Assembly (NCBI GenBank): GCA_020628915.1
Contig: JAHDEI010000001.1
Location: 19,985-83,984, forward strand
Origin: Minisyncoccota bacterium
GTDB taxonomy: Bacteria; Patescibacteriota; Minisyncoccia; Phycocordibacterales; GCA-2747955
Direction of reading: 5' to 3'
DNA length: 64,000 nucleotides
The notes beneath the pieces were generated by a model, which saw only the letters and a list, made by a program, of their open reading frames with translations, was not told the DNA's origin and did not search any database. A program made the translations under genes and the position numbers. Positions 660 through 1,655 of the stretch are shown here, in pieces (within the stretch, counting starts at the first letter, position 1; each line of letters begins with the position of its first letter).

Positions 660-670
660 AACAAATAAAA

Positions 671-698
671 CTGCTGCCCTTCTGGAGCAGCAGTTTTT
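671..698 (+). terminator. Rho-independent terminator after rpmI
   Basis: Hairpin ctgctgc-ccttctgg-gcagcag followed by TTTTT. Confidence 0.7.
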
Positions 699-700
699 AT

Positions 701-729
701 TTGAAACTTTTTCCTGATCTACTATAATG
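701..729 (+). promoter_or_regulatory. Sigma70-like promoter (TTGAAA-17-TATAAT)
   Basis: TTGAAA at 701-706, a 17-nt spacer, TATAAT at 724-729. It is followed by an AGGAG RBS and an ATG at 755. Confidence 0.6.
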
Positions 730-754
730 CGACATAGATAGAAAGGAGCGACTT

Positions 755-1012
755 ATGCAATTCCAATCCCGCACACTCACGTGCAGATGGTGCGACTTTA
801 CGGCTAGCACTGCTAGCGGGGACACACACCTCGATGATGATCCTCGAGAAAAAGATCTTTTTGAAACTATGGAAAATGAATTTCCCGATGATCACCAAGA
901 GCTAATGTTGCATATCATGAGCGAACACGAAGATATACCCGAAGCCGTTGAGCTGACAGAAAAGTATGAGAAACGTGTAGACGACGTTTATGCAGAATTT
1001 AACCCAGATTAA
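755..1012 (+). CDS. Hypothetical small acidic protein with an N-terminal CxxC...H motif
   Basis: An 85-aa ORF with an AAAGGAG RBS. It is very acidic (D/E-rich) and carries CRWCDFTAST...H near the N-terminus. GC content is visibly higher than in the flanking genes. No family recognised. Confidence 0.55.
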   Translation: MQFQSRTLTCRWCDFTASTASGDTHLDDDPREKDLFETMENEFPDDHQELMLHIMSEHEDIPEAVELTEKYEKRVDDVYAEFNPD

Positions 1013-1025
1013 AAAGGAGATAAAA

Positions 1026-1238
1026 ATGGCGGCAACTGCTAAAGATATCGCGGCGATGTTAAGTCGCCCTCCAAGACTAGATGTGCCAAACAAAGCACGT
1101 GTGATTGATCCAGATCAGCGTATTCCCTGCCCACATGAGGGATGTGACTTTGTGGCTACTCCACATGGAGAGTCTTGTGCTGAAGGCGTTCTTAACGGCC
1201 ACCGGGCCAGTAAACATTTTTGGATCCCGGGCCGGTAA
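1026..1238 (+). CDS. Hypothetical small basic protein with a C2H2-like Cys/His cluster
   Basis: An AAGGAGA RBS sits 6 nt before the ATG at 1026. The ORF track starts this frame at 990, but that start has no RBS. Motif IPCPHEGCDFVATPHGESCAEGVLNGHRASKH follows a C-x4-C...H-x4-H pattern and shares the CDF-x-A-[ST] half-site with the upstream ORF. Confidence 0.5.
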   Translation: MAATAKDIAAMLSRPPRLDVPNKARVIDPDQRIPCPHEGCDFVATPHGESCAEGVLNGHRASKHFWIPGR

Positions 1239-1292
1239 GGCTAAAACAAGCTCACCTTTCTTAGGTGGGTTTATTTATTCTTCAGACAAAGG

Positions 1293-1320
1293 TTGACTTT
1301 TATTATAAAAACATTATAAT
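1293..1320 (+). promoter_or_regulatory. Sigma70-like promoter (TTGACT-16-TATAAT)
   Basis: TTGACT at 1293-1298 and TATAAT at 1315-1320. A GAGAGGAGAAG RBS and an ATG at 1350 follow. Confidence 0.6.
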
Positions 1321-1349
1321 AAATATATAGCAGCTGAGAGGAGAAGCAT

Positions 1350-1406
1350 ATGGGTACTAGTATGTTACTGATACTAATCATATTACTTTTAGTCATCTCC
1401 GACTAG
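1350..1406 (+). CDS. 18-aa hydrophobic peptide (MGTSMLLILIILLLVISD), type I toxin-like
   Basis: It has a strong RBS, sits between a consensus promoter and a strong terminator, and forms a single predicted TM helix. Its size and composition resemble Ibs/ShoB/Fst-type membrane toxins. Confidence 0.4.
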   Translation: MGTSMLLILIILLLVISD

Positions 1407-1417
1407 AAGTACAAGTT

Positions 1418-1450
1418 GAGCACCCTTAAATTTGGGTGCTCTTTTAATTT
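1418..1450 (+). terminator. Rho-independent terminator
   Basis: gagcaccc-ttaaattt-gggtgctc, an 8-bp perfect stem, followed by TTTTAATTT. Confidence 0.75.
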
Positions 1451-1472
1451 GCGCTCTCAAGGGAGAACTGAT

Positions 1473-1589
1473 ATGATATCGATCATTAGTTGCTCTGGTT
1501 TCCTCACTATTGTGAGACGTCCGAGTAGCAGTAGAGAGATTAGGGAACCCACAGTGGAGTCTCCCTCTACAGCAACACGACACAACTAA
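1473..1589 (+). CDS. Possible 38-aa ORF (MISIISCSGFLTIVRRPSSSREIREPTVESPSTATRHN) inside a structured RNA region
   Basis: AAGGGAGA sits 7 nt upstream of the ATG. The ORF is too short for the ORF track. This may instead be part of a noncoding RNA. A possible TTGCGC-17-TATGAT promoter lies at 1449-1477. Confidence 0.25.
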   Translation: MISIISCSGFLTIVRRPSSSREIREPTVESPSTATRHN

Positions 1590-1606
1590 GACAGGGTCTC
1601 CCCTGT

Positions 1607-1635
1607 TTCACCAGAGCTTCTAGTTTTACTAGAAG
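1607..1635 (+). terminator. Rho-independent terminator abutting the rplT start
   Basis: cttctagt-ttt-actagaag, an 8-bp perfect stem, followed by TTTTTAATTT. It ends 20 nt before the rplT ATG. Confidence 0.7.
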
Positions 1636-1655
1636 TTTTTAATTTAAAAAATAAT

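Follow-up and report, generated by a model that had tools for sequence, protein, structure and literature searches.

The 64,000-nt stretch of Minisyncoccota bacterium DNA analysed here (hereafter the window; assembly GCA_020628915.1, contig JAHDEI010000001.1, positions 19,985 to 83,984) begins within the gene cluster infC-rpmI-rplT, in which rpmI and rplT are separated by a spacer of 996 nt, from the rpmI stop at 659 to the rplT ATG at 1656. The part of this spacer next to rplT holds a structured leader RNA (1485-1640), which is a good candidate for a new L20-responsive attenuator, and the part next to rpmI holds a compact insert (~698-1448) with three small open reading frames (ORFs). It is fairly probable that the locus is made of two such layers, namely a clade-native, L20-responsive attenuator of rplT and a genome-specific insert of ~750 bp. 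The noteworthy object is the clade-wide leader RNA, and the genome-specific part is a cassette of orphan mini-genes.

Unless stated otherwise, the features described below lie on the plus strand. The window edge cuts infC, so that only its 3' part is present (1-461; Pfam IF3_N and IF3_C), and its full-length orthologue is found in the related genome L001 at 2757-3380. Ribosomal protein L35 (63 aa) is encoded by rpmI at 468-659 (Pfam Ribosomal_L35p, E 7e-8), with orthologues at the same position in relatives. The rplT gene (1656-2393) encodes a protein of 245 aa in which the L20 domain (Pfam L20, E 5e-30) is followed by a C-terminal helix-hairpin-helix tail (HHH_5, E 1e-7). In more distant relatives such as L093, rpmI and rplT are spaced by ~10 nt. 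The preliminary description of the locus, made from the sequence alone, had reported that self-contained expression units separate the two genes, and the elements that it listed (terminators, two promoters, ribosome-binding sites, Cys/His ORFs, an 18-aa peptide and a structured RNA) are confirmed in position as well as in kind.

The rplT leader RNA and its conservation

The leader is preceded by a promoter at 1449-1477 (TTGCGC-17-TATGAT, read from the sequence), from which transcription would start ~7 nt downstream. The same layout, TTGC(A/G)N, 16-17 nt, TAnnAT, 6-8 nt and then an invariant ATTAG, is seen in 11/11 homologues, and promoters in relatives were also found by the promoter scan. The RNA is ~155 nt long and comprises a conserved core of ~135 nt (1485-1621), a terminator hairpin (1617-1635) and a U-run (1636-1640) that ends ~16 nt before rplT. 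Its 5' end is formed by the switch segment AUUAGUUGCUCUGGU (1485-1499), which is identical in 10/11 homologues (L089 differs) and has three possible pairing partners. This is followed by the P2 hairpin (1503-1516), with compensatory changes in 4/5 pairs, and by the P3 arm (1519-1581), which contains an invariant GUCCGAG (1519-1525), a nearly invariant P3a (GUC:GAC), a P3b with compensatory changes in 6/8 pairs and a variable tip. The stretch 1582-1608 holds the conserved block ACAACUAA between P3 and P4 (J3/4, 1582-1589; invariant in 8/11 sequences) and the P4 hairpin (1589-1608); each of the nine homologues folded has a hairpin in the P4 position, with no relation in sequence. At 1610-1640, the 3' strand of P1, ACCAGAGC (1610-1617), overlaps by one base the terminator hairpin CUUCUAG..CUAGAAG, after which UUUUU follows. 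The region 1445-1655 folds at -61.6 kcal/mol (z = -3.3), and 0/200 shuffles are as stable. Searches of the window and seven related loci against Rfam 15, at gathering and permissive thresholds, returned tRNAs only and no match to the leader.

The comparison with relatives covered L001, ten further contigs carrying an L20 relative and one scan of metagenomes by pattern. The species-level genome collection contains a single close relative, L001, a metagenome-assembled genome of 'Candidatus Pacebacteria' whose L20 is 72% identical; here infC and rpmI are followed by a terminator and by sequence alignable to window 1485-1640, and ORF A, ORF B and the peptide of the insert are missing. Altogether, 11 distinct leader sequences were collected (window, L001, L081/L095, L082, L084, L085, L086, L088, L089, L091 and L097), all of them between rpmI and rplT and with L20 proteins 58-73% identical. 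The strict two-block DNA pattern used for the metagenomes hit a single locus, so that the true spread of the family is undersampled. Divergence of the leader RNA tracks L20 identity.

A covariance model, R1, was built from seven of the sequences and gives the window leader 145.5 bits. Exactly one match per genome is found in 752 kb, with none elsewhere in the 64-kb window, and the model recovers L091 and L097 (E ~1e-15) as well as L089 (E 4e-5), none of which had been used for training. As MAFFT misaligned P4 and the divergent L089 and L091, P4 was folded separately and the structural alignment was made by covariance model. Standard pairs fill 96.8% of the cells of the alignment, compared with 84.5% in column shuffles and ~45% when the partners are slid. 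Compensatory double changes occur in 10 pairs, and the observed covariation score was reached in 0/500 shuffles. The stem of the leader terminator shows compensatory changes too, and all leader homologues end in a hairpin with a U-rich run. Mechanical gene calls lay ORFs of 57-62 aa over the leader (window 1416-1589; L097 2791-2979). These calls are considered spurious, because the reading frame is not kept between homologues: loop lengths vary by non-multiples of three, for instance by a 1-nt indel between the window and L081, which excludes a coding reading of the leader.

The relation of this RNA to rplT follows from the transcription signals around it. An intrinsic terminator, recorded without a strand, lies 3' of rpmI at 667-702 and consists of a perfect palindromic 11-bp stem (667-677 with 687-697) and a T-run; a hairpin with a T-run is likewise found 3' of rpmI in 10/10 relatives having the full leader. 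Since rpmI has its own terminator in each of these genomes, the RNA is the 5' leader of rplT. Downstream, the distance from the leader terminator to the rplT ATG is only 16-30 nt in 8/11 sequences, an A/U-rich interval too short for a further promoter, and by eye no consistent -35/-10 pair was seen between terminator and ATG in any homologue. Given the rpmI terminator, the leader promoter and the short distance to the ATG, rplT must be transcribed from the leader promoter and through the hairpin, and the hairpin must therefore be a conditional or leaky terminator. The presence of RNA, promoter and terminator at the same position in relatives also indicates that the separation of rplT from rpmI is a native trait of the clade and is older than the insert. 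The earlier proposal that an insertion had broken the operon is thus not upheld, and that of an acquired module can stand for ~698-1448, which occurs in no relative and has no protein match, and fails for 1449-1640, which is conserved in place. It had further been foreseen that the arrangement might prove to be a lineage-wide spacer with known L20-leader function: a conserved leader it is, but not a known L20 leader according to Rfam.

More distant loci mark the limits of the family. In L092 (L20 53% identical) there is no leader, and rpmI, which was not called, apparently fills the 234-nt gap between infC and rplT. In L093 (L20 42% identical), rpmI is next to rplT and the leader is again missing; infC and rpmI are 347 nt apart there (L093 1473-1820), and this gap, which has no Rfam match, could hold a different upstream regulator like that of Escherichia coli. 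L090 (GCA_041156785.1; L20 63% identical) has retained a leader fragment alone, P1'-P2 with GUCCGAGUAA at 2936-2989. This element reads CUCCGG-UUCC-[hairpin]-GAAGUCCGAGUAA and lies 12 nt 5' of the rplT ATG, in a 100-nt spacer in which neither an rpmI terminator nor a leader terminator is evident; it is the only match to the operator model R2 outside the source loci of that model (14.3 bits). Judging from the sequence, the layout is what a translational operator would look like and may be a version of the same regulator, and this minimal variant points to the P1'-P2 element as the cis-acting core.

In two relatives, the leader terminator is followed, before rplT begins, by a further 175-200 nt of strongly structured sequence (L001 3826-4001 and L082 2812-2977). 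The two share a core, TGAGNCGTACGTCRGTACGGTGAA, with one tiny upstream ORF each (MSF* and MQLRF*), and L001 3640-4003 folds with z = -6.7.

A proposed attenuation switch

The 5' segment can pair in three ways. Its first partner is ACCAGAGC at 1610-1617, with which it forms the long-range helix P1 (96.6% paired across the homologues); the second is CCGAGUAG at 1521-1528, giving the local helix P1' that encloses P2 (98.8% paired); and the third, for the tail of the segment, is ACAACUAA at 1582-1589 (pairing 1584-1589), giving P0 (92% paired). Variation in the 3' partners of P1, P1' and P0 is nearly all one-sided with pairing kept (U-A to U-G, G-U to G-C), and breaks in pairing are confined to the terminal pair of each helix. 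The complementarity between 1487-1499 and 1610-1622 amounts to 13 nt (inverted repeat I12) and extends into the 5' arm of the terminator, passing a UU/UU mismatch into UUAG:CUAR. The two positions of the terminator arm that face the 5' tail are A or G wherever they could be aligned, so that pairing to U is kept, and their partners within the terminator covary with them.

Folds were computed under two constraints, ON with extended P1 and a disrupted terminator, and OFF with P1' and the full terminator. In 9/10 homologues the energy difference between ON and OFF is at most 3 kcal/mol, in L081 it is 4.5, and both states lie 0-4.5 kcal/mol from the unconstrained minimum.

These alternative pairings suggest a mechanism by which rplT may be controlled. 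In this lineage of the candidate phyla radiation (CPR), the infC-rpmI-rplT operon would be cut 3' of rpmI by the intrinsic terminator, and rplT would be transcribed from its own sigma-70-type promoter through the ~155-nt leader, in which the hairpin and U-run come 16-30 nt before the start codon. In the OFF state, AUUAGUUGCUCUGGU is predicted to pair with GUCCGAGUA around P2 (P1') and its tail with ACAACUAA (P0), which would leave the terminator free to form. In the ON state, AUUAGUUGCUCUGGU would pair long-range with ACCAGAGCUUCUA, including the 5' arm of the terminator, so that the terminator would be disrupted and rplT transcribed. Excess free L20 would fix the 5' domain, made of P1'-P2 and the GUCCGAG loop, by binding to it and would thereby favour termination, by the same logic as in the infC leader of Bacillus subtilis. 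Anatomy, conservation, covariation, the single copy per genome and alternative pairings of nearly equal predicted energy are observations; that the RNA regulates in cis, that termination is controlled and that L20 is bound are inferences.

Relation to known L20 regulators and competing readings

Autoregulation by L20 proceeds through attenuation in B. subtilis and through translational repression in E. coli (PMC1865079). In the infC leader of B. subtilis, the 5' two-helix operator cannot pair with terminator bases when L20 is bound to it, leading to termination (PMC1865079). The window leader resembles this Firmicutes leader (RF00558) in ending, as a 5' leader, with an intrinsic terminator and in apparently controlling rplT, in having a 5' two-helix element that could pair locally, as operator and anti-antiterminator, or long-range with terminator bases, as antiterminator, and presumably in its control by L20. 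Nevertheless, it would control rplT alone and lies between the rpmI terminator and rplT in 11/11 sequences, whereas RF00558 is found upstream of infC and controls the whole operon, and its architecture of P1/P1', P2, a long P3 and P4 lacks the AAGA-hairpin-C-GCC of RF00558. Window 1-3000, scanned at E <= 10, and seven loci from relatives, scanned at E <= 0.1, gave no match to RF00558 (gathering threshold 58.7 bits); as a positive control, the family was found at 70.2 and 66.7 bits in the Clostridium loci L056 and L041.

The published signature of L20 sites consists of a hairpin with an AA dimer on its 5' side and two G-C pairs after it, and is common to RF00558, the Deltaproteobacteria L20 motif and the H40/H41 junction of 23S rRNA (PMC7247131). 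The RF00558 consensus reads AAGA-[AGAAGC..GCUUCU]-C-GCC..GGC and the E. coli 23S sequence GAAGA-[GGGAAACAACCC]-AGA-CC; the window leader reads GG-UUUC-[P2]-A(C/U)GU-CC, and two G-C pairs flank its hairpin solely in the P1' fold. Mimicry of rRNA was looked for by manual comparison with E. coli 23S H40/H41 and the RF00558 consensus and was rejected, no convincing resemblance being found. The E. coli L20 operator, a cis element linked to L20, consists of a long-range pseudoknot and an irregular stem upstream of rpmI. The window leader shares long-range pairing with it, as P0 would make a pseudoknot when P1 is formed, and the minimal variant of L090 adjoins the start codon as a translational operator does. 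The two differ in position, sequence and fold; the full-length leader is upstream of rplT, not of rpmI, carries a terminator and has no Rfam match. The leaders described by Eckert and Weinberg in 2020, including the Deltaproteobacteria L20 motif, are similar as lineage-restricted structured RNAs upstream of a ribosomal-protein gene and in the type of evidence, namely covariation and gene association (PMC7247131). They differ in lineage, which is a CPR family here, and in structure, since the published L20 motifs keep the H40/H41-like AA and two G-C pairs. The rplT leader has what defines a ribosomal-protein leader in general, that is, a conserved structured RNA with covariation in the 5' untranslated region, and it is filed here as a new structural variant of such leaders, outside any described family.

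Several points weigh against the two-layer account. L20 is put forward as the ligand from the identity of the downstream gene alone. The AA dimer of the L20-site signature is missing, UUUC being found before the leader hairpin instead, and the strongest match of R1 to 23S rRNA (that of E. coli, not of the clade itself) scores 13.4 bits and is antisense, with ~2 bits in the sense orientation. P1, P1' and P0 contain no double compensatory change apart from a single two-sided one, in P0 of L089, read by hand; these switch helices thus rest on conserved complementarity and not on covariation. In the unconstrained minimum-free-energy fold, P1 and the 7-bp terminator coexist, and the antiterminator hangs on a 4-bp extension past the UU/UU mismatch, which could be weak according to the fold model. 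Near-equal energies under imposed constraints are no stringent test. The additional 175-200 nt in L001 and L082 fall outside what the attenuator model accounts for. As to the insert, its ORFs have no homologues, and their coding status is judged from expression signals and codon bias alone.

There is a smaller, though real, chance that a single CPR family has in this leader an rplT riboregulator of a class not described before. Lacking the H40/H41-like AA and G-C signature that all described L20 operators have in common, it would then use another mode of recognition (e.g., through the clade-specific helix-hairpin-helix tail of L20) or another ligand, and L090 would carry the minimal binding core as a translational operator.

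It is rather unlikely that the leader is a riboswitch-like attenuator with a signal different from L20, which might be another protein (e.g., L35, or the clade-specific helix-hairpin-helix tail), an ion, an alarmone or a metabolite. Such a sensor would be in keeping with the several helices, the invariant nucleotides at the junction and the expression platform, as well as with the absence of the canonical L20-site signature, but rplT is the sole gene controlled, no known riboswitch class is matched, and all precedents upstream of rplT or infC bind L20 (PMC1865079, PMC7247131).

A similarly low probability is assigned to an independent, trans-acting small RNA that is merely syntenic with rplT, the gene itself being expressed by leaky read-through. 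The promoter and the hairpin with U-run at the two ends of the RNA fit this possibility, as does the formation of the terminator beside P1 in the minimum-free-energy fold, and gene order is conserved anyway in these small genomes. Yet the essential rplT would have no other promoter, with rpmI terminated upstream and mostly 16-30 nt between hairpin and ATG; L090 retains just the 5' hairpin element before the start codon, without a terminator; and the terminator arm has its complement in the invariant 5' segment.

To our knowledge, cis-regulatory RNAs are almost uncharted in the genomes of candidate phyla (Patescibacteria), and no description of a ribosomal-protein leader from Patescibacteria was found in Rfam 15 or the searchable literature. 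The candidate leader is directly testable, as it has 11 diverse members, covaries clearly, shows a switch whose architecture can be read and includes a minimal variant that occurs naturally. If confirmed, it would be a fourth, structurally unrelated solution to L20 autoregulation, and a highly conserved operon would have been rewired lineage-wide into infC-rpmI and a separately controlled rplT.

The genome-specific insert and other features

The insert (~698-1448) packs two near-consensus promoters, three AGGAG sites, two terminators and three small ORFs into ~750 bp, with AGGAG exactly 6 nt 5' of the ATG in all three ORFs. Its first unit has a promoter at 701-728 (TTGAAA-16-TATAAT, 11/12 consensus positions), followed by ORF A and ORF B and by a terminator at 1248-1282 (hairpin 1248-1272; 10-bp stem, then ATTTATTCTT). 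The second has a promoter at 1293-1320 (TTGACT-16-TATAAT, also 11/12), the peptide ORF and a terminator at 1418-1445 (hairpin 1418-1441; 8-bp stem with 6 G-C pairs, then TTTT). The hairpins at 667-697, 1248-1272 and 1418-1441 are direct matches of the terminator scan; the leader terminator at 1617-1640 rests on sequence, fold and homologues scored by that scan. Between 400 and 2500, 6 terminator-like sites were observed, compared with 2.2 +/- 1.3 in shuffles. Promoters of 11/12 quality number 6 in the whole 64-kb window on both strands, where shuffles give 2.2, and at this density two of them within 620 nt are not due to chance.

ORF A (85 aa; 755-1012; AGGAG at 744-748) is an orphan with a CxxC...HxxxxH arrangement, containing 2 Cys and 4 His, and is acidic (24 D/E vs 7 K/R). 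Its codon score is 0.18, the best of six frames, with shifted frames on the same strand at -0.17 or lower. ORF B (70 aa; 1026-1238; AGGAG at 1015-1019), likewise an orphan, contains CPHEGCDFVAT...C...HRASKH with 3 Cys and 4 His in total; its codon score of 0.09 is again the best of six frames and lies near the 5th percentile of window genes. The atypical codons noted earlier are therefore real in that both scores are low, yet both ORFs are coding-like. The third ORF (1350-1406; AGGAG at 1339-1343) encodes an 18-aa hydrophobic peptide, MGTSMLLILIILLLVISD (grand average of hydropathy 2.37), which is too short for a homology or codon test.

No relatives of the insert came to light. None of the 11 related genomes examined contains it, and a local BLAST search of the window together with every locus gave no paralogue and no second copy of 698-1448. 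In a word-indexed search of 5.8e9 proteins, ORF A and ORF B each matched nothing but themselves, nothing credible was found for either in Pfam, PHROGs, NCBIfam or PADLOC, and searches of the insert against phage DNA and by tblastn gave no match or E 0.5. Single-sequence AlphaFold2 models have a low mean predicted local distance difference test score (62 for ORF A, 50 for ORF B), too low for a fold search. Paralogy of ORF A and ORF B was considered and rejected, as the shared C..CDF.A and H....H..IP are not significant (BLASTP E 0.91; shuffle p ~0.18).

An exhaustive phmmer search with ORF B gave weak matches to repeat units of zinc-finger arrays (E 1e-7 to 4e-4). Among them are P0124 (E 1e-5), whose first repeat begins CPHEGCDKVY, and P0125 (E 4e-4), with repeats such as CEHEGCDFIAT. 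ORF B shares CPHEGCD with the former and GCDF(I/V)AT with the latter, and has the downstream His pair or Cys-His of C2H2-type and CxHxGCDF(I/V)AT..C..H repeats. It differs from the C2H2-type arrays in being a single unit in 70 aa, with a ligand spacing longer than that of the classical finger, and no Pfam family, curated zinc-finger profiles included, was matched at E <= 1. On this motif likeness, ORF B looks like a single Cys/His finger.

The 18-aa peptide recalls the Ibs/Sib type I toxin-antitoxin systems, in which E. coli IbsC is a toxin peptide of 19 aa, MMRLVIILIVLLLISFSAY (PMC12199084), in its length, its extreme hydrophobicity and its ILI(V/I)LLL run. The host phylum is different, and the peptide is of low complexity, so that its likeness to IbsC is not evidence of homology. 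No minus-strand promoter of at least 9/12, as an antisense RNA would need, is present in 400-2500.

As to the origin of the insert, its absence from relatives and the missing homologues fit an acquired or newly arisen sequence. No transposase, integrase, recombinase or other mobility gene lies in 698-1448, and no target-site duplication or inverted repeats flank the insert beyond chance-level matches of 10-25 nt. It occupies a transcriptionally insulated gap and interrupts neither native unit, and no evidence was seen for its participation in rplT regulation. In L089 (GCA_020629435.1), the equivalent gap between rpmI terminator and leader promoter holds, at 2484-2738 on the minus strand, a different small gene, whose 84-aa product has no match in Pfam and is predicted to contain two transmembrane helices. 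This gap seems permissive for the gain of small genes, and the orphan insert illustrates that an insulated terminator-to-promoter gap in an essential gene cluster can collect new mini-genes.

It is regarded as unlikely that the insert ORFs are not functional genes, whether they be random or degenerating sequence that the gap tolerates or genes of very recent origin. Their homologues are found nowhere, AlphaFold2 confidence is low, the codon score of ORF B is near the 5th percentile, and the different small gene in L089 suggests a permissive spot; on the other side stand two 11/12 promoters, three AGGAG sites at 6 nt and two terminators, far above chance, together with the annotated frame being the best of six for ORF A and ORF B and the finger motif that ORF B shares with zinc-finger arrays. 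Horizontal acquisition of the entire 1-kb block together with the RNA, as a single module, is very improbable: despite the GC-rich ORF A-B segment, the orphan ORFs and strong Shine-Dalgarno (SD) motifs in a genome that seldom uses them, the RNA, promoter and terminator are found in all 10 other sequences, which lack the ORFs, and the RNA diverges in step with L20, so that membership of 1449-1640 is already contradicted.

The block had also been described as GC-richer than its surroundings, which is true for parts of it. ORF B (GC 0.529) exceeds all 202 gene chunks compared, and the ORF A-B segment (0.471) ranks within the highest 1.4% of windows of its size. The block as a whole has a GC of 0.422 against 0.410 for the window, with 27% of 1-kb windows equally or more GC-rich, and the peptide unit is AT-rich (0.307). 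The flanking ribosomal genes are AT-rich as well. As noted earlier, rplT has no SD motif, but this is not unusual: such motifs precede 12/50 long ORFs in the window, strong ones 6/50, and infC and rpmI of the relative L001 lack them likewise. A TGA stop is used in merely 2/50 long window ORFs. Reading UGA as Gly, as in Gracilibacteria, was considered and rejected, for with table 11 the ribosomal genes are unbroken and 79% of the window lies in ORFs of at least 150 aa.

Two observations concern the L20 protein. The public gene call P0003 (237 aa) starts at Met9, window 1680; the MARVKRA that begins at the ATG at 1656 is conserved in relatives (L001), and the annotated L20 start is therefore probably 8 codons late. 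For annotation, this late start belongs beside the spurious ORFs that gene callers lay on the leader RNA. The C-terminal helix-hairpin-helix tail, which L20 has throughout this clade, spans ~85 aa (residues ~160-245 in the window), and a tail 98% identical to it is found in P0108, an S6 protein on another NCBI contig (Pfam Ribosomal_S6 and HHH_5). From the sequences, one DNA/RNA-binding module appears to be fused to two different ribosomal proteins.

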